Assembly (NCBI GenBank): GCA_016188075.1
Contig: JACPIO010000017.1
Location: 23,406-87,405 of the forward strand
From: Candidatus Wolfebacteria bacterium
GTDB lineage: Bacteria; Patescibacteriota; Minisyncoccia; UBA6257; UBA9933
Reading direction: 5' to 3'
Length of the DNA: 64,000 nucleotides
Positions 7,663-25,270 of the stretch are shown here, piece after piece. Numbering within the stretch: the stretch's first letter is position 1; every line of letters starts with the position of its first letter. The notes beneath the pieces were generated by a model that ran no database searches, was not told the DNA's origin, and worked only from the letters and a program-made list of their open reading frames with translations. The position numbers were made by a program, and so were the translations under genes.

Positions 7663-7953
7663 ATGCAAGCGATAAAAAAATTCCTCGAAAAAATTCAAAA
7701 TTCCGACGAGGCGGCGAAAAAACGCTGGGTGGCGGGCGCGAGCGCCCTTGCCATGATCATGATCATTTTTTTCTGGGCTTTCACAATGAATCCGTTAGCC
7801 GATTCGACCTCTCGTCTTCGCGGAGAGGCGGGGCCGGGTTTCTGGGAAATTTTTACAAGCGGTTTAAGAGAGGTAACGGCGTCGATCAAAAATGAATTGA
7901 AAAATCTGTCTTCAACATTAATCGAAGAGCGATCAATTACCATAGAGAAATAA
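7663..7953 (+). CDS. hypothetical small membrane protein
   Basis: 96 aa, one TM helix; its stop overlaps the gyrA start. Confidence 0.4.
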
Positions 7954-10460
7954 TGATTATGGAAAATCAAAAAAATCAGCGCGTCGAAAAACGCGAAATC
8001 ACGGAAGAATTGAAAGAATCCTATTTGAACTACGCGATGTCCGTTATCGTCTCGCGCGCTCTGCCGGACGTCCGGGACGGCTTAAAGCCGGTGCAGCGCC
8101 GAATTCTCTGGACAATGTGGGACGACGGCTTAACCCACAGCGCCAAATTTCGGAAATCAGCTAACGTAGTCGGGGCGGTTTTGGGCCGTTACCACCCGCA
8201 CGGCGATGCGGCAGTTTACGACGCTCTGGCCCGCATGGCCCAAGACTTTTCGCTGCGGTATCCTTTAGTTGACGGTCAGGGTAATTGGGGCAGCGTTGAC
8301 GGGGACAATCAGGCGGCCATGCGTTACACGGAGGCAAGACTTTCCAAGATTGCCGAGGAAACGCTTTTCGATATCGAAAAGGAAACTGTTGATTGGCAGC
8401 CGAATTATGACGCCACGCGCCAGGAACCAAAAGTTTTACCGGCCAAACTTCCCAGTCTTCTTTTAAACGGCACAATGGGCATTGCCGTGGGCATGGCCAC
8501 GAACATCCCTCCACATAACTTGGGAGAAGTCATTGATGCCGCCGACCACCTAATCGTGAATCCCAAAGCAACGACCGAGGATTTGATGAATCACATCCAA
8601 GGCCCGGATTTCCCGACCGGCGGGATTATTTACAATAAAAAAGCCATTGTCGAAGCTTATATTTCCGGCCGCGGCCCCATCACCTGCCGAGCCAAATCCG
8701 AAATCGAAGAGCGCAAAGCCGGACAATTCAATATCGTAGTTACGGAAATCCCCTATCAAATCAATAAATCCGAACTTTTAATCAAAATCGCCGAGCTCGT
8801 TAACGAGAAAAAAATTGAAGGCATCCGCGACCTTCGAGATGAAAGCGACAGAGACGGAATGAGGATTGTGATTGAACTCAAGACCGACGCGGTGCCGCAG
8901 AAAATTTTAAATCAGCTTTATAAACACACAGACCTCCAAAAAGATTTTCATTTGAATATGATTGCTTTGGTTCGGGGTATCGAACCCCAACTTTTATCCT
9001 TGAAAGAAATTTTGGCCGCCTACCTCGAACACCGAAGAGTGGTGGTGGAAAAACGAACCCGGTTCGAACTTCAGAAAGCCAAAGAAAGGGCTCATATTCT
9101 CGAAGGTTTGTCCCGTGCGCTTTCGGTCATTGATAAAATCATCGCCACCATCAAAAAATCAAAAGACCGGGACGAGGCGCGGGTCAATTTGGTAAAAAAT
9201 TTCAAACTGACGGAAATCCAGGCAACGGCGATTTTGGAGATGCGGCTTCAGACTTTAGCGGCTTTGGAACGCCAGAAAATCGAGGACGAACTCGAAGAAA
9301 AAAGAAAATTGATTATCGAGCTCGAAGCCATTCTCAAAAGCCCGGAGAAAATTCAAAAAATCATAAAAAACGAACTTCAGGAATTGAAAAAAAATTACGG
9401 CGACGAACGCCGAACCCAAGTGGTCGCAGGCGGCCTTCAAGAATTCAAACAGGAAGATTTAGTACCTCAAGAAGAAACCATTATTACTTTCTCGGAAGAC
9501 GGCTACGTGAAACGACTCCCGCCCTCAAGCTTTAAAACGCAGAAACGCGGCGGCAAGGGATTAATTGGTCAGGAAATGAACGAGGAAGACCTTTTGGCGC
9601 ATTTCATTTCCGCCGATACCCACGACAATATTTTATTTTTTACCACCCGGGGCCGGGCCTTTCAGACCAAAGTCTATGAAATACCGGTCGGCAGCCGCAC
9701 TGCCAAGGGAAAACTGATTCAGAATTTTTTGGAAATCCCCGCGGAGGAAACCGTGAGCGCCATTGTTACCTACGCGGCTCACAGACTACAGACTACCGAC
9801 TACAGTAAAAATCAGAAAGCCGTAGACCGTAGTCTGTCGACGCTAGACAATTACTTAGTAATGGCGACTAAAAATGGCTTGATAAAAAAGACTTCGCTCG
9901 CGGATTTTTCTAATGTTCGTCGGAGCGGCATTCTGGCTATGAAACTTCAAAACGACGACCAGCTTAAATGGGCAAAACTTTCTTCGGGCAAAGATGAAAT
10001 CATTTTGGCAACTGGCCGCGGACAAGCCATCAGATTCAAAGAAGCCGATCTCCGGGCCATGGGCAGGACTGCCTCCGGGGTCAAAGCCATAAGGCTAAAG
10101 AGTGGTGATTTTGTCGCTGGACTTGATATAATTAAGACAAGTTCCAAATTACCAATTACCAATTACAAATTACTTATTGTGACCGAAAATGGGTTTGCCA
10201 AACAGACTTCTTTGAAAGATTACAAAATTCAGAAACGCGGGGGCGGCGGCATAAAAACCGCTAAGGTTAATCAAAAAACCGGGCGCGTGATCGCGAGTCA
10301 AATTCTCGAAAATCAGGAAGACTTACTTGCGATCTCAACCAAAGGACAATTGATTCGAACGAAAATCGCGAGTATTCGCTTAGCGGGCCGCGCCACCTCC
10401 GGAGTGCGCATTATGAAATTAAAAGAAGGAGATAAAGTTGCCGGAATAGTATGTCTTTAA
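7953..10460 (+). CDS. gyrA: DNA gyrase subunit A
   Basis: 835 aa; [25 protein letters not shown], active-site region and C-terminal beta-pinwheel repeats. Carries in-frame low-complexity insertions at 9781-9850 and 10141-10175. Confidence 0.95.
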
Positions 10461-12694: not shown

Positions 12695-13120
12695 ATGAAT
12701 TTCCAAAAAATTATAAAAAATTCTAAAAAAATCTTGACTTTTTTCATCCTATTTTCCAACTTCTTGTTTCTCGTTCCGCATCCATTAGCTTTAGCGGCCA
12801 TCACTCCGGGCCAAGTTCCGACCGCGGGAGATTTAGACGTTACCCCCTCGCCGGTAAACAGCCCCCAAGACTTGGAACGGGTTACCAAGAACGCTACTAG
12901 CGGTTTTTATGTAAGTTTTTTTATTCTAGCTGTTCTGTTTATTTTAATTGCTGCTTATAAATATCTTTTTGCAATGGGAGACGTTGAAAAACTAAAAAGC
13001 GCTCGCCTTATGCTTATTTATGCGGCAATCGCTATTGCCGTGGCCTTAATGGCTGTTAGTTTCGAGCTGATTATTAAAAATTTTTTAGCTCTTCCCAATG
13101 CCGGGATCCCCAACCAATAA
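12695..13120 (+). CDS. TrbC/VirB2-like pilin-family protein, paralog 3
   Basis: Signal peptide, helix - AMGDVEKLKSARL - helix. Confidence 0.5.
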   Translation: MNFQKIIKNSKKILTFFILFSNFLFLVPHPLALAAITPGQVPTAGDLDVTPSPVNSPQDLERVTKNATSGFYVSFFILAVLFILIAAYKYLFAMGDVEKLKSARLMLIYAAIAIAVALMAVSFELIIKNFLALPNAGIPNQ

Positions 13121-13220
13121 ATAGGAAGTGTTTTATAAATACCTTGAAATTTTCTTCTTAATACCTTAAAATTAAACTATATAAAAGTAAAAAGGTCGAA
13201 ATAAACTTTATCAATCTAAA

Positions 13221-13619
13221 ATGAAATTAACAAACAACAAAAAAATCTTCATAGTCGGCGGAATAACAATTTTAACCTTATTACTAGCAACATCCGCCTT
13301 GGCCCAAAATCCTGATCCTACAACACGGACCGGCATAAGTCGTATAGCGGGAGTCCCAACAAACCCAAACGAACTCCTTACTAGGGTAGGCGACTTCGTA
13401 AGATGGGCATATATTCTCTTTTTTATTCTAGCTGTTCTGTTTGTTCTGATTGCAGCCTATACCTACCTTACAGCTGCTGGCAACCAGGAAAAAATCGATA
13501 AGGCTAAAACTATGCTGATTTACTCTGCCGTTGCGGTTGCTGTGGCCTTAATGGCAATAGTATTTAACACTATTATAGGAGGATTCGTCGGTGGTGGCGG
13601 CGCCATCCCCAATCCATAA
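13221..13619 (+). CDS. TrbC/VirB2-like pilin-family protein, paralog 4
   Basis: Signal peptide (SALAQN), helix - AAGNQEKIDKAKT - helix, Gly-rich C-terminus. Confidence 0.5.
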   Translation: MKLTNNKKIFIVGGITILTLLLATSALAQNPDPTTRTGISRIAGVPTNPNELLTRVGDFVRWAYILFFILAVLFVLIAAYTYLTAAGNQEKIDKAKTMLIYSAVAVAVALMAIVFNTIIGGFVGGGGAIPNP

Positions 13620-13776
13620 GTCATTAACTATCCCCCGCACTCTTGGTTATTTAATGGTTAGTGCGGGGCAGGGCCAAGAACGATATTTTTTATTGTTTTT
13701 CGCCCTGCCCGGTAGTAGACCCTGCCCAATTTTACGATTTAATCTTACGACTTACGATGTCGTAAATAATTAATAC

Positions 13777-14163
13777 TTGCTAATGTCTAAATTTTTTAGA
13801 AAAATTTTTTACGCAGCGGTGGTTTCCTTTTTACCGATCTTTTTTATAAGATTAAAGGTTTTCGCAACAGAGGTTGGTGGCACAAGCGGCCAAACCTATA
13901 CCCTTCAAGACCCTCTCGGCAACCAAAATATTCTTACCATCATAGGCCGGGTTATTGACTACCTAATTTACATTAGCGTTCCGCTCCTTGCCTTATTTAT
14001 TCTCTGGGGCGGTTTTCAGATTTTGGGCGCCAGAGGCGATGTGGAAAAAGTCAAAAACGGCCGGGCCACTATTCAATGGGCAGTCATCGGCTTTACGATT
14101 ATTTTAGTATCAAAAGGAGTAGCTCTTATTCTTTTAAGAATTTTGTACCCTTCTAGCCCCTAA
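13777..14163 (+). CDS. TrbC/VirB2-like pilin-family protein, paralog 5
   Basis: TM, helix - GARGDVEKVKNGRA - helix. Confidence 0.45.
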   Translation: MLMSKFFRKIFYAAVVSFLPIFFIRLKVFATEVGGTSGQTYTLQDPLGNQNILTIIGRVIDYLIYISVPLLALFILWGGFQILGARGDVEKVKNGRATIQWAVIGFTIILVSKGVALILLRILYPSSP

Positions 14164-14263
14164 TTTCTCAAAAAAGAAACCCGTCAGCCAGACAAGAGTC
14201 TCGTAGCGCGTTGCTACGGACCAAAGCCCAGCTGACGGGCAAGACCTAAAACCCGAAAGAGCA

Positions 14264-14719
14264 TTACTTCTTATCGATTGAAACCTCCGCGGCATCACCA
14301 TCGCCGCGGAGCCTGAAGTTCGTAAACTTCACAGCCCCTAACCACTGAGTGGTGTCCGCGCCAAACTCAAGCGCCGGACTCCCGTCCCATGGCAGGAGCC
14401 AAAGACGACCCTGATTCCGTGCCCGGAAGTTAGTCTGGCCAGGGAGCTTCACCCATCCCGACCAGCAATCCAATCTTAACGGGACGCGAATCTGAGGCTG
14501 CAGAAAGCTCAAATGGTAATCTTGAGCATCCCCGCAGGTTGGATATTCCGCCGCCGCCGCTACCTTGGCCGCCGCAGCCGCCTTATTTCGTTCTGCTTCG
14601 GCAGCCTTACCTCTTCCTTCCCAATAGTCGTAACCCTTGACCGCCATAACCAAAAGGGGGCCGGCGATCACAAGCGCCCAGCTAACACCCTTGATCGAAG
14701 AAGTCATCCCGATATGCAT
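14264..14719 (-). CDS. membrane-anchored protein, possible NfeD-like partner of the SPFH protein
   Basis: 151 aa, N-terminal TM segment, C-terminal beta-rich segment; 1-nt junction with the upstream SPFH gene; GC-rich. Confidence 0.4.
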   Translation of the reverse strand: MHIGMTSSIKGVSWALVIAGPLLVMAVKGYDYWEGRGKAAEAERNKAAAAAKVAAAAEYPTCGDAQDYHLSFLQPQIRVPLRLDCWSGWVKLPGQTNFRARNQGRLWLLPWDGSPALEFGADTTQWLGAVKFTNFRLRGDGDAAEVSIDKK

Positions 14720-15811
14720 TTACGGCCTCCTTCCGAGAAGAGCAGTGAGCGCAGCACTCACCACCCCTCGACTCTCGGACGAAATGGTCACTTTTTTCTC
14801 ATCGATCGTCTTCTTTACCTTATCGCGCTCGGTCTGGACGATTTCGAGCGCTTGTTCCGGCGTAAAGTTAAGGGGGGCGGCCATGAGCTCTCGAATCCTC
14901 TCGCGCACATGTTCGAGCTCAATCCGTTCAGCCTCCCTCTGCCGCTCTTCTCGTCGAGCCTTCTCGTAATCCTCCTGTACTTCTGGAGGTCGAGAGAGCT
15001 CACCAACGAGCACTTCGATAACATCAATACCCCATTCGATGGCTCGTTGGTCAGCCCGGCGTTGGATACCGTCGAGTATGAGATCCCTTGCAGCCACCGC
15101 GTCGTCATCGTTTAAAGTCCTGACGGTGGAACGCAGATTCTGTTGGACGAGCTCGACCAAACTTCTGTCGATTACCTCCTCGCCAACAGAGAGTACCTGC
15201 CCGGGGTTTTCAACCCGCCAGCGGATTGCCGACGGCTCCACGGTGATCCGAACGTTATTCGACGAAATCACGGTGAATTTATCGGCCCGAGAACTCCTTT
15301 CGCGTGCATCTACCGCCTCGGCAGCCATAATGGGCCGAGGCAATATCCAACTCCACCCCTCGGAAAGTTCGTAACGGGCGCGAACCAACCCCACTTCTTC
15401 CGGAGTTCCGTCGGGCAACGGACGTATTGCGGTAAACCGTTGCAGCAGACGTCCTCCAAAAATAGTCGGCACACCCCGGTGAGCAATGGGAATCGAGATT
15501 AATCCGGCCACTCCGAAGTAGCCGAAAACGACGAAAGCTACCCCTATATTGTAAGGCCAAGAGATAAGGGTGTATGCGACACCCGTTAATACTCCGACGA
15601 GGAGAATTCCGAGAAGAAACGACCGAACTCGGCTGAGTCTTCGGGGTTCTTCGTCACCGCCCCAAGGCGAGATCGAAGGGGCACTAGGAGGAGTAGGCGG
15701 GGTAGTTATAGCCGTTGTCGGTCGGCGCCCACGGCGCCCAAGAAGGTACCCCAACAAGGCCACGAGAAGCCCTACTACACCGACACCTATCCATGTCCAC
15801 ATCGCATCCAT
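14720..15811 (-). CDS. SPFH/band-7 (stomatin/prohibitin/HflK-C-like) domain protein
   Basis: 363 aa; two N-terminal TM helices, SPFH core and a long Glu/Arg coiled coil (EDYEKARREERQREAERIELEHVRERIREL). Markedly higher GC than the surroundings. Confidence 0.7.
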   Translation of the reverse strand: MDAMWTWIGVGVVGLLVALLGYLLGRRGRRPTTAITTPPTPPSAPSISPWGGDEEPRRLSRVRSFLLGILLVGVLTGVAYTLISWPYNIGVAFVVFGYFGVAGLISIPIAHRGVPTIFGGRLLQRFTAIRPLPDGTPEEVGLVRARYELSEGWSWILPRPIMAAEAVDARERSSRADKFTVISSNNVRITVEPSAIRWRVENPGQVLSVGEEVIDRSLVELVQQNLRSTVRTLNDDDAVAARDLILDGIQRRADQRAIEWGIDVIEVLVGELSRPPEVQEDYEKARREERQREAERIELEHVRERIRELMAAPLNFTPEQALEIVQTERDKVKKTIDEKKVTISSESRGVVSAALTALLGRRP

Positions 15812-16024
15812 CGTCCTTCTCCTTCCGACCCGTGTCGCTCTGGACGACTGGGTCTCATGCGGGTTATTAGGTTATCTTGCTCTCGCGTCCACTAAAGTGA
15901 ACGCGCACTAAGTCAAAGTACAACATCCCGAGTGTCAACTCGGAACTGCCTTAATATAAGCACAAATCGCTAAAAAAGTCAACATCTTGTTTTATTTTAC
16001 TTATTCCCCTTTTTCCCGTTTCTT

Positions 16025-16156
16025 TAATCCAAACGCCAGCAATTCCTCGCCGCTTGTATCGAGGATGAATGGCGCAACTAAGAATCTCGGCGGAGCCGAC
16101 CCTTATTGGATCGAACCCGCCCTGATGCCGCGCCGCTTGCGGCGCGGACGGGTTCA
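16025..16156 (+). repeat. ~135-nt structured repeat element, copy 3
   Basis: First hairpin variant CCTCGCCGCTTGTATCGAGG, short-loop terminal hairpin. An inverted fragment of the same element (catcctcgccgcaagcggcgagg) lies at 16564-16586. Confidence 0.8.
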
Positions 16157-16201
16157 CTCCTCCGCCAATCTTACATTAACCTTGTATTCCCCCAACTCGC
16201 T

Positions 16202-17658
16202 GCTACGTTTAAACGTAGCAGTGAGAACGTAGCAACGAGGGAGGAACGCCGACAGACGAAAAACCCAGGGGAGCAAAAACCATTAAAACTCTTTTCCTTA
16301 GGAGCCGGCTTGATGATAAATCAAACAATTCTGTCCGCTACGTTTAAACGTAGCGGCGAGGCATACATCAAAAATACAGAGAATGACCGACCGAAAGAAA
16401 TCAATCAGTTCCTCCCGTTCGTTCTCCTGCTCGAAATTAATACTCCGTAGTTAACGTTTCGCAAAATTTTAGAGTTGCGCTCGCGTCATTATCTTTCACG
16501 ACATTATCTTTTAAAACTGCCTGCTACGTTTAAACGTAGCAGGCAGGATAACCATAAAACATCCTCGCCGCAAGCGGCGAGGTATTCGGCGATTAGCGCC
16601 ATAAACAAACTTTTGAAAAGATATTCCAATCTAAAAAGATATTCCGGGCGAAAACTAAAGTTGATCAAGAAAATCCCAGCGACCCCTTCCCTTGTAGGCC
16701 GGAATTTTTCTTCTTTTGTACCGCGGTTCGCGGAATCTTAACGGAATATTTTTTAATTTCTTATCCGGGTTGATTTTTTCCCTCCTTTTTAATCCCCTTT
16801 TCACAAAACTAATGGTGTCGGGACTTACGTCAACAATTTCACCTATTTTCCGGTAAGTTAAACCGCGTTCCAAAAGCAAGAGAGTCGCCAATCTTCTTTC
16901 AAGAAGATTAATTTCGCTTCCCGAAAGAAATTTATTTAAACCGCAGAGCAAGTCTTTTTCGGAGGTTGCTCCCCTTATCTCCGTCAAGAACTTTTGCCAT
17001 GCCGCCCTCTTCAAAATCTCCCCTATGTATTTTTTATTAACATTGACCATCTTTTTATTCTTTTAACCATTACTCCGGCTCCATTCACCATTCTAACAGT
17101 CTTTTGCTAATCCTTAAATTATAAAACAAGTAATTATATATTGCTATGTTTAAACATAGCAGGTTAACTGAAAAAGAAGGGTAGAAGGGCTCCGGATTCT
17201 ATTATCTCTATATCAGCATGAGTGACGTCAGTATATCAATATAAACGATATCAGCAGAGATCATTTCGGCGCAGGACGATTCTCTTCGATCTGCTACGTT
17301 TAAACGTAGCAGACAGAGTAAGGATAATCGCAGCTTAGCCAAAAAAACCAGTCCAAATTGCAAAACTATTATTTTCTCTCCACTACGTTTAAACGTAGCG
17401 CGCAGGGTAGGAATAGACAGAAGATGGTCGAGTAACTGGCGCGAATAAACAGCGGCTCCGAATACACGACAGCCGAGAAAGCAAGAGGGGCAAATATTTT
17501 CAGAAAGCAATACTGCGAAAAATACCGCAATGCTACGTTTAAACATAGCAGCGAGACGTAAATCAACTACCTCGCGGTTAGCACTCGCAAAATTTTGAAT
17601 TTATGCTCGTAACGCTATCGTCTAACTTCTAAAATTGCACGCTACGTTTAAACGTAGC
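16202..17658. repeat. array of eight 18-bp perfect palindromes GCTACGTTTAAACGTAGC (irregular spacing)
   Basis: Cores at 16202, 16336, 16523, 17143, 17293, 17382, 17532 and 17641. Flanks extend the palindrome differently in each copy (a perfect 30-mer at 16517-16546). The copy at 17143 carries a compensatory C>T/G>A pair. Confidence 0.85.
16655..17050 (-). CDS. TrpR-like (YerC/YecD family) helix-turn-helix protein
   Basis: 131 aa; ...LTYRKIGEIVDVSPDTISFVKRGLKR matches the Trp-repressor/YerC HTH; basic C-terminal tail. Sits inside the palindrome array. Confidence 0.6.
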   Translation of the reverse strand: MVNVNKKYIGEILKRAAWQKFLTEIRGATSEKDLLCGLNKFLSGSEINLLERRLATLLLLERGLTYRKIGEIVDVSPDTISFVKRGLKRREKINPDKKLKNIPLRFREPRYKRRKIPAYKGRGRWDFLDQL

Positions 17659-17743
17659 ACGTCGCTCTAGGGCGACGAAATTTCAAAAGTGAAAGTAGGA
17701 ATAAAAATGAAAATGAGAAAGAAACGAGGAAGAAAAGATAGAA

Positions 17744-17772
17744 TTGACGACAGGCGACAATTAAATTAAATT
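17744..17772 (+). promoter_or_regulatory. promoter candidate for tRNA-Leu(UAG) (TTGACG-17-TAAATT)
   Basis: -35-like TTGACG at 17744 and -10-like TAAATT at 17767, about 8 nt before the tRNA 5' end. Confidence 0.3.
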
Positions 17773-17779
17773 AAATGGT

Positions 17780-17865
17780 GGGCGAGTGGCGGAACTGGAA
17801 TACGCGTACGCCTTAGAAGCGTATGGACTATGTCCTTGAGGGTTCGAATCCCTCCCCGCCCACCA
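17780..17865 (+). tRNA. tRNA-Leu (UAG), CCA encoded
   Basis: Type II cloverleaf: GGGCGAG/..CCCGCCC acceptor (one A-C mismatch), anticodon loop CTTAGAA, long variable arm, T-arm GAGGGTTCGAATCCCTC, then ACCA. A start at 17777 is an alternative parse. Confidence 0.75.
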
Positions 17866-17876
17866 CAGAATTATCA

Positions 17877-18161
17877 ATGTATTATGTTTACATTTTACAA
17901 AGCTTGAAAGATAATCGCACTTATGTTGGTTATACTCAAAATATCACCAACAGGTTGCATCAACACAATAATGGCGAGGTAAGGGCTACTGCAAACAGGC
18001 AACCATTCAAGTTGTTGTATCTAGAGGAGTGTCAAAACTTAATCGAAGCTAAAAGTAGGGAAAATTATTGGAAATCTGGTGGCGGCAGAAGAAAGCTTAA
18101 AAAATATTTTTTGGATGGGTTCCCGCCCCGATTATCATCGGGGCGAGGCTCGCCCAAATAG
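17877..18161 (+). CDS. GIY-YIG nuclease superfamily protein (YhbQ/UPF0213-like)
   Basis: MYYVYILQSLKDNRTYVGYTQNITNRLHQHNNG...: YVY...YVGYT...RL.QH is the GIY-YIG core. Lies immediately 3' of the tRNA-Leu gene. Confidence 0.65.
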   Translation: MYYVYILQSLKDNRTYVGYTQNITNRLHQHNNGEVRATANRQPFKLLYLEECQNLIEAKSRENYWKSGGGRRKLKKYFLDGFPPRLSSGRGSPK

Positions 18162-18165
18162 ATTT
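18128..18165. repeat. GC-rich multi-hairpin repeat (ccgccccgattatcatcggggcgaggctcgccc)
   Basis: Near-identical unit at 26919-26949, partial at 27012-27031; sits between convergent genes and probably acts as a bidirectional terminator. Confidence 0.55.
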
Positions 18166-18226
18166 GGGCGGCGAATCTCCCCCTCGGCACCTGGGTTAGA
18201 AGTTTGCGATTTAACGCGGGAAGGTT

Positions 18227-21200
18227 TTAGCGCGAGAAGAGTTTCAAAAGCTCCGCGATTTTTGTTTGAAGCAGAGAAACATTGGCTATAAGCTCCGCGG
18301 GATTGGCGTAGAGAGTGGTTGAGGTCGAAATCGGGGTTGAGGTCGCGTACGGCGGAGTCGAAGTAACGGAATAGCCTACTGCAGGAACAACCGTTATTGT
18401 ATTACCAGCTGCTGATTGAATTCCGGCCGGAATAGAGGCGTTGGAGTTTCGTCCGTAAGCCCGGATATCGGAGGCTGAACCAATGGCAAAAATGTATTGT
18501 CCGCCCGAAGAAGCTCCGCCGGAGATAAGTGGAGCGACGTCAGCTCGCAATTCCAACTCAATAGCGCTATTTTGCGGGACAATGGCCGGGATTGAAAGAT
18601 TAAAGACGTAAACCCAAGTGTCTCTATTAGTTGAACTGGCAATGATTGGTCCAGCCACCACCGTGCCGCTATTCAATAATCTGGCATTTTGGAAAGATGG
18701 CGTTGTCGCGTTGTTGGTCGAGACTGCGGTTATGGTTAAAGCGTCAACCCTAATTGGTTCGGCGGAGTTGTTGGCAAAACGAAAGGTGGCTAAACTGTTA
18801 TTGACTGATCCCATCACCACTTGCGTGGACGACGCGGTATTTGGGCTAATGGATACTCTAAGAAAGGCTGACGTATCCGGCGTGGGCGGAGGATTGCCAG
18901 TTGCTGGCGCCCCGGCAACACGGCGGCAAACATCAAATTGAAGCATTTTCTGGATTGTTAGATTCCCGACAATGCCTGTGCCATTCGGGTTAAGTCCTCT
19001 CGCGATTAGAGCATCGCGCAGGTAATCACGTTGAAATGCTTTTACGGCATCAAAGGTTGGATTAAGAATCAAGTCGAATGAGTAATGTCTATCCTCCAGA
19101 TGCCCGATAAATTGACGGATGGATGAATCCGGGTAAGCGCTTGGATTTATATATCCCAAACTCACCAAACACTCCTGGACCTGGGCTTTTTGAGTCGTGG
19201 TTAGATTTACCGCGGAAATATCCGGGTCAAGTGGGCCGCCGAATCTTCTCAATGGCAATCCAGCACCACCACTCCCTGGCCCTCCTATACCACCCATACC
19301 ACCAGCCGTACCTCCTATACCACCTGGTCCACCTCCAGATGCAGCAGCTTCTGCAGCGGCGGCCGTTGCTGCTGCCTCTGCTTGTTCCGCTAGTCCTTGC
19401 GCTCCCGCAGAAGGACCCGCGGTATCTGACGCTCCGCCGCCAGCTTGAGAAACCGTCCCTCCTGCGCCTGTCGAAGAAATAATCGGTCCTTGATTGGCGC
19501 ACAATTGATTTAATTTTCTTTTTGTATAAGTGCCGACAATGCCCGTGCCGTTTTCTCGGCCGCCAGAAGTGTAAATTTCCGAGGAAAATTGATTTTGAAT
19601 TAGTATAACCGATGACGAGGTTTGAGGCCCAAAGGTACCCAAGCCAAGAGCTTCGCTACTAGGCAAAGTAAATTGAGCAGACGGAATCGTTGCCAAACAT
19701 TGTTGTAATCGAACAACTTGGCTTCTATTGTTGTTGGGTGAATCTCGGCGCAACTCCGTTGAATCATTGTAAAGATCAAAAAGCGGTCCCCGAACTGCCG
19801 GCAAAATCTCAAAATTCAAAAGATTAGCTGTGTCAAAAACATTACTACCGGTAATCGCGGTGTGAACTCTTAAGACAAGACTGGAGAGTTCCGAAACGTC
19901 GCGGAAGGTCAAGCGAACCGAAGTACCGCGCGTCAAATCATACTGGGTTTCCGGGTTAAAACTTTCAATCCGGGCGTTTTGAGACACATAACTCCACTTA
20001 ACCCGATCACGGCAAATCTGTCCTTCTCGGCAGAAAGGGGCGGCCCAGGTAAAAGTGGCGGATTCTCCGGCGTTAAATCTGGTTTTTCCGTCCGGCAAAA
20101 GAGAGAAATTAGAGTTGCCTAAGTTGGGAACAAGGGCTTGGGCTGTGGCCGGCGAAGTTAAGGGACCAGAAGTCGGCGCGCCAGAACCAGGAGCAACTAC
20201 TCCGGGACCGCCAGTTCGCGGTCCGACTGTTACTGAAATACTTCTTCTGCCTATTTCGCCTTGGCCAAACGCGGTAGTCGAAAAAAGCGCTCTCAAAACA
20301 ATGTTGACGGTTCTCGAAGTGCTCGTGCTGTTAGTGATTAAAACTTGAGCCGGGAACAAAGTTTCGTGGAAATTATAAGGACCGTTACCTTGTCTTCCGC
20401 AGTATTCTCGGCCGGCATAACCAACGGTCACTGCGTTATCGTCATTTCCTTCACAGCCAAGAGTAATAATGGGAGAAAAACCAAGACCCGGCCGCTTGGA
20501 CGCATTCAGAGCTACCGTGGTTCCGGAATTAATTGTTATAGATGTAACTGGAGTCGGATTGCTTGCGGAGATGGCGGTAAAAGATGAAATAACCGGGCCA
20601 GAGTCAGCAACGCCCGAGTCAGGAGACGGCGCCGAAAGAGTTTGAACCACCCTAAAGATACCCGCGTTAGTGCTTGGGGCAGACCGCGCTCCGGGAATGG
20701 CAACTGGCCTCCCGCCTAACCAGTAGTAACCGTCGGGCACAATATAATACTGATCCGGCATAATCACCCCCAACGTATTTGAGCTTGCCGCTGGAGTGGG
20801 ATTAAGAGGATTACCGATAAAATACGGGTTATCGCCGTTATAATTTACAGCAATAGTGTCGCCGACTTGGGCCCCGGATCCGATATTAGCCTTGATAGTT
20901 AAAAGTCTGTAGCTGCCGCGAGGAATTCTAACCGGAGTTGTTAATTCAATAAAAGTGGCATTAAGAAATGCAGATGCTGAGAAATTTGCGCTGCCGACAT
21001 TGACTGCGCCGTTCCACAAGGTGAGTCCGTTTATAGCCCGCGGGTTGGTGCCACCGAATTTCAATCCAATCCGCCGGAGATCAATGTCATAGCTATCTGA
21101 AGCGAGACGCAAAATTGTTGTTGTAGTATTTTGGGAGTTGGCAAGAACTTCCAAGTTGCCACCGCGCGGCGAGGTATCGTCGAGAGTTATCGTAAAGGCG

Positions 21201-23047
21201 CCGGTCGTTGGAGCAGGAGTCTGGGTAGGCGAAGGAGTGGCGCCCACCGCAGAGCTTGACCCTACGGCAATGGACACGCTTTTTTGGTCGCTCAATACAT
21301 TGCTTGAGGGATTGGTATTGCTATAAACGCTGTAAGTTTTCAGAATCAGAGTAATTGTTTTTTGAGTATTGGCGCTGTTCGTTAAACGAACCAAAGCCGG
21401 AAAAGTGCTAATAATAACTCCATAAGGCCCGTTTATAACATGATTGTCCGCCGGATGATGACCGCAATAAACTTGGTTATTAGAAACCAAGACTAACGAA
21501 ACATCGCCGCTATCATTGCCCTGGCATTCAAGAGTAGCGGCGGCAACGTTTGCTTCGGAATTTAAACGGGCAGTTAAAGTATTAGATCCGCCGGAATTTA
21601 CATACGGAGAAAAGGCGCTGAAGCTTGAAAGGGCCGGCGCAGGCGTTGGAGTTGGAGTTGGTGTTGGTGTTGGTGTTGGTGTTGGTGTTGTGGCTGGCGC
21701 GCTAACCGTTATTGTGAACGGGCTAGTTTGAGCCGAACAATTGCTTTCGTCAGACGAAGCACAAGCCCAGCCGTAGAGATAATAATTGCCCGTCGCAAGG
21801 GTTGGTGAGATATTCAGGATATAAGGATTAGCTGCGCCGACGGAGGTCCGTGGAAAAGATGATACGCCATCATATCTCAAGCTAAAGTGATTGACCGTAC
21901 CACTTACGCCAAGAAAGCTAACCTGGATAGAGGTAGCGCCCTGGGTGACGGCGGAGGGGGCTGAAACCGAAGAAAGAGTTGGCGCCGGAGTCGGGGTTGA
22001 CGAGACCGGCGCGCTCACAGTCGCGGTTGTGGTTTTGTATGGAGAAGGGGTGCCGTCGTTTTTGAAAGCAGCTCCTTGGAGTTCATAAGCTCCGGCGGTA
22101 GTGGGTGTAAAAGAAATTCCGGTACAGAATCCGGTTACGGCAGTAGCAGGATTCCATACGGACGTTCCCTGAACTCTATACTGGAACCCGCAGAAATCAT
22201 TACTGGCGTACCCACTAAAGTTTACGGTCATCTGATTTCCAAGCGTCACCGAGTTCGCCGAGATACTGGTGAGGGTTGGAGTGGTTGGCGTCGGAGTGGG
22301 AGCCGGAGAAACCGTAACAGTAACCACGCTATTGCTGGATCTGCTGTTATCAGCGCCCAGGGCATAAAGAGTAAAAGTGACCAATCCGGGAGATATGCTG
22401 CTATTATTTACGGTAACGACATTACTGGAATTACTAACAACGTTGGCAGGAACATTAGGGGTAAATCCCGGAATAGAAATACTGGGGTTATCCGAAGAAA
22501 AAGAAAGCCAGCCGCTTACGGCATTTTGAGCCGAAGTGTTTAAGGTTACGTTCGATCCAGATGGAACCGTGGTTCCGTTCTGAGGCGAAGAAAGAGAGGC
22601 GGTTACCGGCGGAGCAGCGATGGTAAACGTGTCCGTGGTCGCACCAATTGGCATTGATTGGCCGTCTTTGGATCCATTCCAGTATACGTTAACGGTGTGA
22701 GTGCCGACATTATTGAAAGTGCAGGTGGCGCTATAAGATCCGCCGCAGTTATTAAGATAGGTTCCGTCGAGATTCACGGTCATTATGCCAGCAATCCCCC
22801 AATTGGAAGGCGGCTGACTCGGATAAGTTCCGGTTGAATCACTGCGATAAACCGAAGCATTGAGCGTGGCGGTACTTCCCGAGACGGTAACGGCTGTAAA
22901 GTTGCAAAAACCAAAAGTTGACAAAGTGTAGCCCGGCACCGCGGCGCATTTAGTATCGGCCTGGGCTTCTTTTGTCAAAATCCCCCCGAAAACTCCGAGG
23001 AAAACGACCGCTAATAATATAATGAAAAAATACTTAAAATTTTTCAT
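18227..23047 (-). CDS. giant secreted/cell-surface protein (1606 aa) with PG-binding-like domain
   Basis: Signal peptide MKNFKYFFIILLAVVFLGV; many Thr/Pro linkers (TPTPTPTPTPTPTPTPAP), Ser/Thr/Asn-rich beta-rich segments, a Gly-rich stretch. Near the C-terminus is a PG_binding_1-like segment (TQKAQVQECLVSLGYI...FDAVKAFQRDYL...GTGIVGNLT). Confidence 0.7.
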   Translation of the reverse strand: MKNFKYFFIILLAVVFLGVFGGILTKEAQADTKCAAVPGYTLSTFGFCNFTAVTVSGSTATLNASVYRSDSTGTYPSQPPSNWGIAGIMTVNLDGTYLNNCGGSYSATCTFNNVGTHTVNVYWNGSKDGQSMPIGATTDTFTIAAPPVTASLSSPQNGTTVPSGSNVTLNTSAQNAVSGWLSFSSDNPSISIPGFTPNVPANVVSNSSNVVTVNNSSISPGLVTFTLYALGADNSRSSNSVVTVTVSPAPTPTPTTPTLTSISANSVTLGNQMTVNFSGYASNDFCGFQYRVQGTSVWNPATAVTGFCTGISFTPTTAGAYELQGAAFKNDGTPSPYKTTTATVSAPVSSTPTPAPTLSSVSAPSAVTQGATSIQVSFLGVSGTVNHFSLRYDGVSSFPRTSVGAANPYILNISPTLATGNYYLYGWACASSDESNCSAQTSPFTITVSAPATTPTPTPTPTPTPTPTPAPALSSFSAFSPYVNSGGSNTLTARLNSEANVAAATLECQGNDSGDVSLVLVSNNQVYCGHHPADNHVINGPYGVIISTFPALVRLTNSANTQKTITLILKTYSVYSNTNPSSNVLSDQKSVSIAVGSSSAVGATPSPTQTPAPTTGAFTITLDDTSPRGGNLEVLANSQNTTTTILRLASDSYDIDLRRIGLKFGGTNPRAINGLTLWNGAVNVGSANFSASAFLNATFIELTTPVRIPRGSYRLLTIKANIGSGAQVGDTIAVNYNGDNPYFIGNPLNPTPAASSNTLGVIMPDQYYIVPDGYYWLGGRPVAIPGARSAPSTNAGIFRVVQTLSAPSPDSGVADSGPVISSFTAISASNPTPVTSITINSGTTVALNASKRPGLGFSPIITLGCEGNDDNAVTVGYAGREYCGRQGNGPYNFHETLFPAQVLITNSTSTSRTVNIVLRALFSTTAFGQGEIGRRSISVTVGPRTGGPGVVAPGSGAPTSGPLTSPATAQALVPNLGNSNFSLLPDGKTRFNAGESATFTWAAPFCREGQICRDRVKWSYVSQNARIESFNPETQYDLTRGTSVRLTFRDVSELSSLVLRVHTAITGSNVFDTANLLNFEILPAVRGPLFDLYNDSTELRRDSPNNNRSQVVRLQQCLATIPSAQFTLPSSEALGLGTFGPQTSSSVILIQNQFSSEIYTSGGRENGTGIVGTYTKRKLNQLCANQGPIISSTGAGGTVSQAGGGASDTAGPSAGAQGLAEQAEAAATAAAAEAAASGGGPGGIGGTAGGMGGIGGPGSGGAGLPLRRFGGPLDPDISAVNLTTTQKAQVQECLVSLGYINPSAYPDSSIRQFIGHLEDRHYSFDLILNPTFDAVKAFQRDYLRDALIARGLNPNGTGIVGNLTIQKMLQFDVCRRVAGAPATGNPPPTPDTSAFLRVSISPNTASSTQVVMGSVNNSLATFRFANNSAEPIRVDALTITAVSTNNATTPSFQNARLLNSGTVVAGPIIASSTNRDTWVYVFNLSIPAIVPQNSAIELELRADVAPLISGGASSGGQYIFAIGSASDIRAYGRNSNASIPAGIQSAAGNTITVVPAVGYSVTSTPPYATSTPISTSTTLYANPAELIANVSLLQTKIAELLKLFSR

Positions 23048-23090
23048 ATGTTTTTATTGTAGCAATAATAGCAAAAAATAGAAAAAATTC

Positions 23091-23378
23091 CTATCTTTTT
23101 AATTTTGCCCTAATCGCCGCTTCGATTCTATCGAGGGCATTCGGGGAGGTATTTGATGGCTTAACAGTGGTAGGTTTTGGTATTGGCGCTGGTGCTGGTT
23201 TTGGCGTTAGTATTGGGGTTGAAGTTGGAGTCGGTATAACTTGAACTAGAGGAGTCGGAGAAGCAGTTGCCGGAGCCGACCCCGGCTCTTCGGCTGAATT
23301 ATAAAAAAATCGAACAGCGAATATGCCAGCCACAATCACCGCGATCCCGATAGCAATAACAACAATTATTTTATCCAT
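23091..23378 (-). CDS. small membrane-anchored Pro/Thr-rich protein
   Basis: 95 aa, N-terminal TM helix, then a PTPT-rich linker. Confidence 0.4.
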   Translation of the reverse strand: MDKIIVVIAIGIAVIVAGIFAVRFFYNSAEEPGSAPATASPTPLVQVIPTPTSTPILTPKPAPAPIPKPTTVKPSNTSPNALDRIEAAIRAKLKR

Positions 23379-23384
23379 AAAATT

Positions 23385-23996
23385 TTATTGAGCGGCTGTT
23401 GCGGTTGGAACGCCAGACTGATTAATGGCGTTCGAATCCGCTCCATAGAGATTCTCCGTAGGCAAAGATGACCAAAATTCTGCTGCCGCCTGCTCGCCGT
23501 TACTCGAAAACGAAAGCTGAATAGAATTTATTTGCTGCGAGGCGCTGAAAGTCCGATGAAGGTTTATTGACTTAATCGGCGGAGTAAAATCTTTTACCAC
23601 GCTATTATCAACCAATTTTTTAGCAGACCAGAAAAAAGACTTAATATCTCTGTAATTGGTGGTTCCTTCGTAGTAATTATATACCGCGCTATTCAAGAGA
23701 AATCTTTCGGAGCCGCCCTGACCGCTAACTCTAATAAATTCTTCAACAAGCTGATTTTCGCCACCCCTCTTTAGATTGACAACGCCATAAAGAACCGTAA
23801 TGGGCTGGTCAACGCCACCGGCAATTTGAACTATCCAGTTCCCTGGATCAACGTTTGCTGATCTTGCGGTAAACTCGGCGGCGTATCTCACTTCAACTTC
23901 ATCAAAATCGTATCGGATGCTTTGAGCGACAGAAACGCCGCCAAAAGAAATCAGAGCAAATAAACTAAAAATAAGATATTTTGCGCTTTTGCCCAT
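23385..23996 (-). CDS. hypothetical secreted protein
   Basis: 203 aa with signal peptide (…VSVAQS). Confidence 0.45.
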   Translation of the reverse strand: MGKSAKYLIFSLFALISFGGVSVAQSIRYDFDEVEVRYAAEFTARSANVDPGNWIVQIAGGVDQPITVLYGVVNLKRGGENQLVEEFIRVSGQGGSERFLLNSAVYNYYEGTTNYRDIKSFFWSAKKLVDNSVVKDFTPPIKSINLHRTFSASQQINSIQLSFSSNGEQAAAEFWSSLPTENLYGADSNAINQSGVPTATAAQ

Positions 23997-24095
23997 AAAT
24001 TATTTAATTAAAAACCGTAGCCACTTTTCCTGACGTAATTTTAGCAGGATTCATAGCGGAAAAACAAGATGGGGCGGTTGATAACTAAGCACATG

Positions 24096-24179
24096 TGCCG
24101 GAGGAGGGAGTTGAACCCTCATGAGATTGCTCTCGCACGCTCTTGAGGCGTGTGCGTCTGCCAATTCCGCCACCCCGGC
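24096..24179 (-). tRNA. tRNA-Leu (CAA)
   Basis: Reverse complement GCCGGGGTGGCGGAATTGGCAGACGCACACGCCTCAAGAGCGTG + long variable arm + GAGGGTTCAACTCCCTCCTCCGGCA; anticodon loop CTCAAGA. Confidence 0.85.
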
Positions 24180-24256: not shown

Positions 24257-25270
24257 ATGGAACCAGAAGAAAATTCAAACATTGCGCCTTCCTCATCCCT
24301 TATTCCCGAACCGCCGGAAAAGCCGGTATCCGCGGAAATTTCAGAGCTGGCCGCGCCAACCGAGCCGGTTTCCACTCCGGCTCCTTCTGATATTCCATTT
24401 TCTCCCCGGCCTCCGATAAATCCGCCCGCCCTAAAAAGGAAATTTCCCGAGGCGATTTTTCAGATTGAAACTGACAAAATCAAACCCAATCCGCATCAGC
24501 CGCGCCGCGACTTTGACGAAGACTCCCTAAAGGAACTGGCGGCTTCCATCCGGGAACTGGGCATTCTTCAGCCGCTCGTTGTCTCTAAAATCGAAAAAGA
24601 AACAGATCGCGGCACGGACGTGGAATACGAACTTATAGCCGGCGAACGGCGTTTGATGGCCGTGAAAATACTTGGCTGGGAAAGAGTGCCGGCAATCGTT
24701 CGAACCGTTGATTCCCAATCCGAAAAATTAGAAATGGCCGTGGTGGAAAATCTCCAGCGGTCGAATTTGAATCCGCTGGAAACCGCTCGAGCCTACGCCA
24801 AACTTCAGGACGAATTCCGGCTGACTCAAAGAGAAATCGGCGCCAAAATCGGCAAAAGCCGGGAGACGGTTTCCAACACCTTAAGACTTTTGAATCTGCC
24901 CACGGAAATCCAGGATGCCCTGGCAAAAAACCAAATAAACGAAAGCCAGGCGCGGCTCTTGCTTCAAATCGAAGACCCGAAAGAGCAGCAAATAATTTTC
25001 GAGGATTTATTAAGCCGTAATTTAAGCGTCCGAGAATTAAAATCAAGAATCCGGAAAACCAAACCCCAAAAAACTTCCGGCGAATCCGCTCCGACATTCA
25101 AAGCCACTGATCCGGAAATTCTGAATTTGGAGGAAAAATTAACGGAAATTTTAGGAGCCAAAGTGCAAATTCAAAAAACCGAAGCCGGCGGAAAAATCAT
25201 CATTGATTTTTATTCGGCGGAAGAAATCAAGGGCATTCTCCAGAAATTAAATCCTCATCCGCAAAACTAA
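24257..25270 (+). CDS. parB: chromosome partitioning protein ParB/Spo0J
   Basis: 337 aa; Pro-rich N-terminal extension, ParB box ELIAGERRLMAVKILGWERVPAIV, HTH LTQREIGAKIGKSRETVSNTLRLL. Confidence 0.85.
   Translation: MEPEENSNIAPSSSLIPEPPEKPVSAEISELAAPTEPVSTPAPSDIPFSPRPPINPPALKRKFPEAIFQIETDKIKPNPHQPRRDFDEDSLKELAASIRELGILQPLVVSKIEKETDRGTDVEYELIAGERRLMAVKILGWERVPAIVRTVDSQSEKLEMAVVENLQRSNLNPLETARAYAKLQDEFRLTQREIGAKIGKSRETVSNTLRLLNLPTEIQDALAKNQINESQARLLLQIEDPKEQQIIFEDLLSRNLSVRELKSRIRKTKPQKTSGESAPTFKATDPEILNLEEKLTEILGAKVQIQKTEAGGKIIIDFYSAEEIKGILQKLNPHPQN

Follow-up and report, generated by a model that had tools for sequence, protein, structure and literature searches.

A TrpR-like gene bracketed by palindromic candidate operators beside tRNA-Leu(UAG) in a Wolfebacteria genome, and its relatives across the candidate phyla radiation

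Is the DNA that lies between an array of pilin-like genes and a giant gene in the genome of a Candidatus Wolfebacteria bacterium a single mobile element, or is it a set of residents that resembles one? The question concerns positions 14164 to 18165 of a 64-kb stretch of contig JACPIO010000017.1, called the window in the following, where an SPFH gene pair, a gene for a TrpR-like DNA-binding protein within an array of palindromes, a tRNA-Leu(UAG) gene and a small GIY-YIG nuclease gene follow one another. A first-pass annotation had listed these parts and had read them as an integration hotspot or a decaying integrated element. All of the parts were found again at the same positions by gene calling, Pfam and ARAGORN searches and repeat and folding analyses (Table 1), and the changes in composition that it had described were also borne out: GC content is 0.39-0.44 in the pilin array, rises to 0.55-0.59 at 14150-15950, falls to 0.36-0.43 at 16400-18050 and returns to about 0.49 in the giant gene, the value for the whole window being 0.455. 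The span contains four protein genes, encoding the SPFH protein, a protein of 151 amino acids (aa), the TrpR-like protein and the GIY-YIG protein. The annotation's remark on the scarcity of conventional coding DNA is correct for two stretches, 15812-16654 and 17051-17779, with a total of 1572 bp of non-coding DNA or 39% of the span, and does not hold elsewhere, where the genes are ordinary. We consider it likely that resident genes of the chromosome make up the region as a mosaic of three units rather than one element, and that the palindromes serve as operators of the TrpR-like protein.

The array is formed by an 18-bp palindrome, GCTACGTTTAAACGTAGC, which occurs eight times at no more than two mismatches in the 64 kb that were covered by all scans for repeats, attachment (att) sites and paralogues, against a chance expectation of 0.03. 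All eight copies are located within 1.46 kb around the TrpR-like gene and no copy was present outside this cluster in the 64 kb, nor did the window contain a second TrpR-like or GIY-YIG gene. The fourth palindrome, which abuts the likely -10 element of the TrpR-like gene, is the sole copy with two symmetric substitutions, and these would fit an autoregulatory operator of lower affinity. The third copy extends to a perfect palindrome of 30 bp (16517-16546) that is followed by TTTT on the strand of the TrpR-like gene, the fifth is overlapped by a promoter-like TTTAAA-18-GATAAT on the plus strand, and the copy nearest to the promoter-like site of the SPFH gene lies 220 bp upstream of it. Start-to-start spacings of the palindromes amount to 135, 186, 620, 150, 89, 150 and 109 bp, a series in which helical phasing was not found, and the repeat core measures 18-22 bp. 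A CRISPR or integron-like array was considered and rejected, given the irregular spacing, the short repeat (CRISPR repeats have 23-47 bp and are separated by spacers of similar length) and the lack of a Cas or IntI gene in the span.

The gene in the midst of this array belongs to the Trp repressor family by its Pfam match. A profile of its own family matches the solved TrpR-like structures 3kor, 3g1c and 3frw at 1e-9 to 6e-7 and Escherichia coli TrpR at 2e-3. An AlphaFold2 (AF2) model built on 32 homologues reached a pLDDT of 85, with residues 11-90 above 90, and predicts an all-helical TrpR fold with a helix-turn-helix; its top 27 fold matches in the PDB are all TrpR or TrpR-like proteins (probability 0.91-1.00, target-normalised TM score 0.52-0.71). 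Further features of the family alignment are a basic tail and, at the C-terminus, a conserved PxYxGxGRWxFL motif. With 20.1 bits against a cut-off of 42.2, the protein is not a member of TIGR02531 (YerC/YecD, HisR). A full HMMER search yielded about 190 cluster representatives of about 130 aa. An association of the family with phages was rejected, as the viral contig collection held no relatives and matches to PHROG were weak.

The evidence that links the protein to the palindromes comes from its relatives. Using an alignment of nine sequences as the query, we fetched 45 loci encoding TrpR-like relatives from genome and metagenome collections, and all of them apparently belong to the candidate phyla radiation (CPR), namely to Saccharibacteria, Jorgensenbacteria, Paceibacterota and Wolfebacteria. 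Both flanks were available for 43 of these loci, and in 42 of them a locus-specific 18-bp palindrome brackets the TrpR-like gene, the upstream copy at 33-218 bp from the ATG and the downstream copy close to the stop codon; not a single palindrome pair turned up in shifted control windows of the same loci (0/205). The sequence of the palindrome varies from locus to locus (e.g., GCTATAATCGATTATAGC, GCTATCTTTAAAGATAGC, ACTACAGTTAACTGTAGT, GTGTCATTCGAATGACAC, and GGTGCAGTTAACTGCACC). Even two paralogues of one genome carry different palindromes (L018 versus L023, and L022 versus L025), and because the sites differ in this way among loci and between paralogues, a generic genome-wide hairpin is excluded. 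Within orthologous groups, on the other hand, the sequence of the recognition helix and the palindrome are both shared. Many of the family sites have the centre AGTTAACT, which is also the centre of the classical E. coli trp operator, GTACTAGTTAACTAGTAC.

The position of the sites relative to promoters bears on their role as well. A -10-like hexamer follows the upstream palindrome at a distance of 1-15 nt in 21 of 34 non-redundant loci; nine of these hexamers match TATAAT perfectly, and a TG extension is present in ten. After the downstream palindromes of the same 34 loci, a perfect TATAAT was never found. Other loci have two palindromes, sometimes three to five, so that a maximum of five stands against the eight of the window. 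Some of the extra palindromes are located in front of neighboring genes, and these proteins therefore probably control a few local promoters. At two loci, a third copy of the palindrome was found 36-44 nt upstream of the folD start codon (L025 at 4831, L026 at 2328), which suggests that the short family members encoded there, of about 90 aa, may also regulate folD. At L018, L019, L022, and L027 (also at L040, L044, and L057), the TrpR-like gene and its palindromes sit exactly between a gene for an N-terminal ComEC part of about 485 aa, with DUF4131 and Competence domains, and a separate gene for a metallo-beta-lactamase of about 283 aa, the sum of which corresponds to full-length ComEC. Either the cassette splits comEC or the regulator controls competence genes.

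Taken together, the position of the promoter-proximal site and the family-wide rule lead us to infer that the TrpR-like gene is autorepressed and that the palindromes are its operators. A dimer of the protein would bind each palindrome, as would be expected from its fold, which is that of TrpR, and from the resemblance of the sites to the trp operator, and when bound at 17143-17160, directly beside the gene's own -10 element, it would repress the gene. The other seven copies would act as auxiliary operators that raise the local concentration of the repressor and permit looping, which is the weakest part of our account, and the promoters of the flanking SPFH and tRNA-Leu genes might be shielded or controlled by the extra copies as well. 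Relatives as a rule have a single site before the gene and a single one after it, and local duplication would have expanded the set to eight in the window.

Several points weigh against this account. Protein and site would co-vary by shared descent alone as well. T-runs follow the downstream palindrome in 9/34 loci and the upstream palindrome in equally many (9/34). Eight sites in otherwise non-coding DNA are unusual for a simple autoregulator, and looping would require dimer-dimer contacts of the TrpR-like protein. Family members of about 90 aa that do not have the C-terminal motif still possess both palindromes. The spacers of the array are neither gene remnants nor known RNA according to tblastn and Rfam searches, and two features of the neighborhood, the GC excess of the SPFH gene pair and a structured GC-rich segment at 16030-16170, are left unexplained.

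For the expansion of the array there are apparent traces. A direct repeat of 109 bp, the two copies of which both end in a palindrome, and similarities over 56 nt around three palindromes would be remains of local duplication. The flagged region is also present in near-identical Logan contigs from runs SRR121134xx, and in three of these (L001-L003) the variants at 17604 (T>C), 17610 (T>C), and 17614 (G>A) all change the base of the right copy of the 109-bp repeat to that of the left one, which looks like gene conversion between the two copies. The idea that the spacers are decayed copies of the TrpR-like gene was dropped: when the protein was compared with 15900-17900 by tblastn, the best match outside the gene had an E-value of 0.08. 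An open reading frame (ORF) for 112 aa on the minus strand (17208-17546) of the Logan contigs was judged spurious, since it crosses three palindromes and has no family match.

How do these findings relate to known systems? Looping repressors provide one comparison. Repressors that act through several operators are well known from lac (O1/O2/O3), gal (OE/OI), and phage lambda, where cI acts between OL and OR and the repressor gene itself lies between operator sets. The likeness would lie in identical operators that flank a transcription unit at distances of a few hundred bp from one another, 380-690 bp in the CPR family; the protein folds are unrelated. E. coli TrpR is closer, as it shares Pfam family and fold with the protein of the window. 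Compared with its operators at trp, trpR, and aroH, the CPR sites are operator-sized, perfect palindromes of 18 bp, many of them with the centre AGTTAACT, and the site overlapping the regulator's own promoter is alike as well, implying autoregulation. The two proteins nevertheless share only about 20% sequence identity; the CPR protein has the additional basic tail and the PxYxGxGRWxFL motif, and its gene is bracketed by sites on both sides, eight of which are clustered in the window. The CPR organisms that carry the family are not known to make tryptophan.

HisR (YerC of Bacillus subtilis) is another member of the TrpR family, with lineage-specific palindromic operators of about 20 bp and frequent autoregulation (PMC9413887). 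The window family has its best matches by sequence among solved relatives of HisR (3kor, 3g1c, and 3frw). The window protein, in contrast, fails TIGR02531 and has no histidine genes nearby, and HisR proteins are shorter than 100 aa and not described as bracketed by sites. The arrangement also recalls the repetitive extragenic palindromes (REPs) and their associated transposases (RAYTs), in which a gene is flanked by genome-specific copies of a palindrome; there, however, the gene encodes an HUH/Y1 transposase and the REPs are dispersed, whereas the gene of the window encodes a helix-turn-helix regulator and its palindromes are exclusively local within the 64 kb. The core novelty would be a TrpR-like family found across the CPR, the genes of which are bracketed by their own predicted operators, with the window harboring the largest operator cluster found. 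No description of a bracketed TrpR-like family in the CPR was found in the searchable literature, the coverage of which is incomplete and does not prove novelty. Hardly any CPR transcription factors have known targets, and here each gene carries its own predicted operators on both sides, so that dozens of natural protein-site pairs amount to a table of specificities for the TrpR fold.

Whether the surrounding genes are residents can be judged by comparison with relatives. In the Wolfebacteria locus L009, the order gyrA, solute-binding protein, pilin array, small partner, SPFH, and tRNA-Leu(tag) is that of the window, where an 835-aa ORF at 7953-10460 represents GyrA by its Pfam match. The pilin array of L010 encloses the SPFH gene and is followed by tRNA-Leu(tag). 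The second Wolfebacteria locus, L024, has the order SPFH, M48 peptidase, GATACGTTTAAACGTATC, TrpR-like gene, GATACGTTTAAACGTATC, tRNA-Leu(tag), HD protein, tRNA-Leu(caa), parA, parB, and relA/spoT. A tRNA-Leu(caa), parB, and relA/spoT also occur in the window, and the identities between the window and L024 are 63% for ParB, 79% for RelA/SpoT, and 45% for the TrpR-like protein. Apart from positions 2 and 17, which are symmetric, the palindrome of L024 equals the window consensus. Because of the shared backbone and the minor difference in the operator, we regard the TrpR-like unit as ancestral beside tRNA-Leu(UAG), which would be its original neighbor. SPFH pair and tRNA are present in L009, L010, and L024, the TrpR-like unit is present in L024, and the only genes without a counterpart are the GIY-YIG gene and the giant gene. 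The comparison of the whole block with related genomes, which the first-pass annotation had proposed as a check, has thus largely yielded the conserved synteny that it had named as speaking against its own reading.

Some differences exist nevertheless. Between the window and L024, the orientation of the TrpR-like gene is reversed while that of both flanks is kept, and the M48 peptidase gene is present in L024 only. Locus L009 is devoid of a TrpR-like gene and instead contains, between tRNA-Leu(tag) and the SPFH gene (9464-9483), a solo degenerate palindrome, ATACGGTTGATAAACCGTAC, which resembles the Wolfebacteria operator and may be a relic of the loss of the TrpR-like gene. Any two copies of a palindrome can be read as direct repeats and equally as inverted repeats, so that recombination between the bracketing sites could yield inversion as well as deletion, which would be the main argument for reading the unit as a cassette. 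Everything 3' of tRNA-Leu(UAG) differs among the window, L009, and L024. Between the two tRNA-Leu genes (17866-24094), the window contains the GIY-YIG gene, a gene for a 1606-aa protein without a Pfam match and an ORF for 203 aa, while L024 has a single HD-domain gene in unrelated DNA, and it is this interval and not the flagged span that constitutes the variable part of the locus. In L024, positions 4655-4720, directly after the intact tRNA-Leu(tag), align with a tRNA-Leu over its 3' half, from the variable arm through the T arm to the acceptor strand, and resemble the 3' end of the tRNA-Leu of the window; this stretch may be the remnant of a tRNA end that was replaced.

The SPFH gene and its small partner would form a GC-rich operon that belongs with the neighboring pilin array. 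SPFH homologs of about 50% identity adjoin pilin arrays in L009 and in L010/L011 (Parcubacteria Gr01-1014_2). A small gene also follows the SPFH gene in L009, L010, and L024, without detectable homology to the 151-aa ORF of the window. When the pair was compared with NfeD-type operons, the Band_7 domain was present and the adjacent 151-aa protein had no Pfam or NCBIfam family. The GC content of the pair is 0.56-0.57 in the window, and in L009 (9623-11220), the closest of the three genomes that share the neighborhood, it reaches 0.59-0.61 against 0.51 overall. Since the L009 pair is likewise GC-rich, the jump in GC is not a sign of recent arrival; the GC step is a property that the SPFH gene pair shares. 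The excess over the genome amounts to about 10 points in the window and L009 and is smaller in L024 and L010.

The GIY-YIG gene forms the third unit together with tRNA-Leu(UAG). Its relatives are numerous in CPR genomes, share 55-71% identity and are small genes of 80-110 aa. In nine of nine independent loci, a tRNA or tmRNA gene is present on the same strand within 350 nt of the GIY-YIG gene. The gene follows tRNA-Leu(tag) by 11 nt in the window, tRNA-Glu(ctc) by 4 nt in L058, tRNA-Gly(tcc) by 5 nt in L067, tRNA-Gly(ccc) by 73 nt in L061, and tRNA-Gly(gcc) by 72 nt in L070 and by 277 nt in L063; it lies between two tRNA-Met genes in L060, occurs as two copies between tRNA-Gly(tcc) and tRNA-Leu(taa) in L066, and as two copies flanking tmRNA in L020. 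At most about one gene in six would have a tRNA neighbor by chance, as estimated from the six RNA genes in the window, and on this estimate the adjacency is far beyond chance. Gaps as short as 4-11 nt cannot accommodate a promoter or a ribosome-binding site, which suggests that the GIY-YIG gene is co-transcribed with the tRNA. Its mRNA would have a short leader and would probably be released through 3' processing of the tRNA. The occurrence beside many different tRNA genes suggests mobility. If the linkage holds genome-wide, it would point to a selfish nuclease family that lands at tRNA genes or to a class of genes expressed by tRNA punctuation in bacteria.

The nearest analogue found in the literature is T4 SegB, a free-standing GIY-YIG homing endonuclease encoded in a tRNA gene cluster (PMC2330249). 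As in the window, its gene is found among or beside tRNA genes and outside introns; unlike SegB, the protein of the window consists of the catalytic domain alone (94 aa) and is encoded on a CPR chromosome rather than by a phage. An assignment to the Seg-like free-standing homing endonucleases was rejected: there is no second, DNA-binding domain, and the protein fails the homing endonuclease models (TIGR01453 16.3 against a cut-off of 56; PHROG homing-endonuclease matches weak at 2e-3). The gene may be selfish or may be a housekeeping companion of tRNA genes. For mini GIY-YIG genes adjacent to tRNA genes in the CPR, no description was found in the searchable literature, which is incompletely covered and is no proof of novelty. 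In L063/L064, a gene with a faint match to LAGLIDADG_3 (819-1463) resides in the same tRNA cluster as the GIY-YIG gene, so that two nuclease-like genes are interleaved with tRNA genes.

Against this background, other explanations of the locus have to be weighed. An integration hotspot at tRNA-Leu(UAG) or a decaying integrated element, with repeats and composition shifts as scars, would accommodate the GC shifts across the span, the tRNA at its edge, the differences in gene content beside the tRNA among the window, L009, and L024, the tRNA-Leu-like 3'-half remnant right after tRNA-Leu(tag) in L024, and the association of the GIY-YIG family with tRNA genes. Yet synteny of the SPFH pair, the pilin array, and tRNA-Leu(tag) is found in three other Parcubacteria genomes and that of the TrpR-like unit in one, and the GC excess of the SPFH genes is common to L009. 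The first-pass annotation had itself seen no integrase or att duplication, and this was confirmed: no recombinase is encoded by the four protein genes of the span, no integrase or recombinase gene was detected in the span and its immediate flanks, and the 3' end of tRNA-Leu, for which a repeat had been suggested as a further check, occurs only once in the 64 kb, both as 25 nt (at up to three mismatches) and as 17 nt (at up to two). The non-coding DNA with an accessory appearance is located on the 5' side of the tRNA, whereas integrases usually target the 3' end. The repeats, which had been taken as a hallmark of integration, are accounted for as regulator binding sites and GC-rich hairpins rather than att or insertion sequence remnants. 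What stands of the hotspot proposal is that the locus varies among relatives; its core is syntenic and bears no integrase-type marks, and we regard the proposal as very unlikely. A jump in composition, a tRNA, a small nuclease gene, and repeats can evidently mimic an island where the features are resident and syntenic.

The unit of palindrome, TrpR-like gene, and palindrome could alternatively be a self-contained selfish or invertible cassette, the protein of which uses the flanking sites to propagate, invert, or excise the unit rather than simply to repress transcription, and the eight sites would then record repeated rearrangement. Near-universal bracketing agrees with this, as do the inversion of the unit between collinear flanks relative to L024, its absence from L009 with the degenerate solo palindrome left at 9464-9483, the presence of two copies in some genomes, the varied genomic contexts including the position between the halves of a split comEC in four loci, and breaks of Logan contigs at 16051 and 16562. 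These breaks, however, are not at palindromes, the TrpR-like protein has no catalytic domain and no recombinase nearby, viral contigs gave no matches, the context is conserved within lineages with neighbors that have diverged about as much as the cassette, and the upstream site occupies the position of an operator that abuts a -10 element. A cassette of this kind is in our view unlikely. If the palindromes acted as RNA only, in hairpins that terminate, stabilize, or process non-coding transcripts of the array, a dedicated binding protein would be dispensable, and the spacers are indeed non-coding and several copies extend to GC-clamped hairpins with T-runs (e.g., 16517-16546 and the downstream sites of L013, L021, and L029). 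It is difficult to reconcile with this that each paralogue in one genome has its own palindrome, that the sites resemble the trp operator with an AT-rich centre and no loop, that the upstream copy precedes the -10 element and is thus not transcribed from the gene's own promoter, and that no Rfam match exists; the equal frequency of T-runs downstream and upstream also led us to reject the downstream palindrome as a general terminator. A role as RNA alone is therefore highly improbable. The poorest candidate is a chromosome-maintenance site, i.e., a replication origin or a centromere-like or organizing array near parB bound by the TrpR-like protein. Clustered sites as in centromere-like arrays, parB at a distance of 7 kb, and a local change in the sign of GC skew near 17100 would be in line with it. 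DnaA boxes, though, number 13 in the 64 kb against 10.3 expected, with none in 16-17.8 kb, no dnaA gene was found in the region examined, the GC skew of the window follows the gene strand without a global minimum at the cluster, and in 40-odd relatives the sites merely bracket the gene in varied contexts. A replication origin was rejected for want of a DnaA-box cluster, GC skew being uninformative at the scale of the window, and the maintenance function as a whole appears extremely improbable. A bolder synthesis would see the TrpR-like gene as a minimal cassette of a hitherto undescribed kind, widespread in the CPR, with two self-complementary ends that are bound by its own product and allow inversion, deletion, and spread, the eight-site array as an expanded nucleoprotein form that controls the tRNA-Leu and SPFH promoters, and the tRNA-tethered GIY-YIG genes as a new class of free-standing selfish nucleases expressed via tRNA processing; we find this doubtful.

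Table 1. Features of the flagged span and of its surroundings in the window (aa, amino acids; coordinates refer to the window)
Feature	Coordinates	Strand	Remarks
Convergent terminator region between last T4SS-pilin-like gene and SPFH-partner gene	14164-14263	.	Long hairpin 14181-14240; terminator-like site 14196->14180(-)
151-aa membrane-anchored ORF, SPFH partner	14264-14719	-	No Pfam or NCBIfam family match
SPFH/Band-7 membrane protein gene	14720-15811	-	Pfam Band_7 2.8e-18; GC 0.56
Promoter-like site TTGACT-18-TATATT for SPFH operon	15953-15982	-	10/12 consensus matches; consensus match only
GC-rich structured segment	16030-16170	.	Folds better than 200/200 shuffles; z = -3.7 (+), -4.4 (-)
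Operator-like palindrome 1	16202-16219	.	Exact consensus
Operator-like palindrome 2	16337-16354	.	Exact consensus
Direct repeat, 109 bp, left copy	16434-16541	+	69% identical to 17560-17659; ends in palindrome
Operator-like palindrome 3	16523-16540	.	Exact consensus; closest to TrpR-like stop codon
GC-rich hairpin with T-run, third member of hairpin family, likely intrinsic terminator of TrpR-like gene	16563-16582	-	Terminator scan and hairpin family
Gene for 131-aa TrpR-like DNA-binding protein	16655-17050	-	Pfam PF01371 Trp_repressor E 2.1e-8, 34.5 bits (cut-off 27)
TATAAT -10 element, likely TrpR-like gene promoter	17133-17138	-	4 nt downstream of palindrome 4
Operator-like palindrome 4, GCTATGTTTAAACATAGC	17143-17160	.	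Two symmetric changes, still perfect palindrome; promoter-proximal
Operator-like palindrome 5	17293-17310	.	Exact consensus
Operator-like palindrome 6	17382-17399	.	1 mismatch
Operator-like palindrome 7	17532-17549	.	1 mismatch
Direct repeat, 109 bp, right copy	17560-17659	+	Ends in palindrome
Operator-like palindrome 8	17641-17658	.	Exact consensus; 86 bp upstream of tRNA promoter-like site
Promoter-like TTGACG-17-TAAATT before tRNA-Leu	17744-17772	+	Consensus match only
tRNA-Leu(UAG)	17780-17865	+	ARAGORN; Rfam tRNA 51.8 bits; CCA not encoded
Gene for 94-aa stand-alone GIY-YIG domain protein	17877-18161	+	Pfam PF01541 1.3e-17, 64.3 bits (cut-off 22.6); starts 11 nt after tRNA
tRNA-Leu(caa)	24095-24179		
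parB	24257-25270		
relA/spoT	25275-26819		

The structured segment at 16030-16170 lies upstream of the predicted SPFH promoter, and its minus strand is predicted to adopt a GC-rich three-way structure of -69 kcal/mol. Neither the segment nor the non-coding spacers of the array have a homolog in any of the fetched loci or a match in Rfam; in an Rfam scan of 13000-19000 with E-values up to 1, the tRNA was the sole match. Three related hairpins occur at 16044-16064, 16127-16147, and 16562-16582, the first two of them inside the segment. Logan contigs of the region (L001-L008), assembled from the same population in four or five runs, end exactly at 16050/16051 and at 16562, and these ends fall in the related GC-rich hairpins 16044-64 and 16562-82, which share a direct repeat of 10 nt, TCCTCGCCGC. 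One contig, L004, passes through 16562. The contig ends could reflect a structural variant of the 510-bp segment between them or a drop in coverage at the hairpins.

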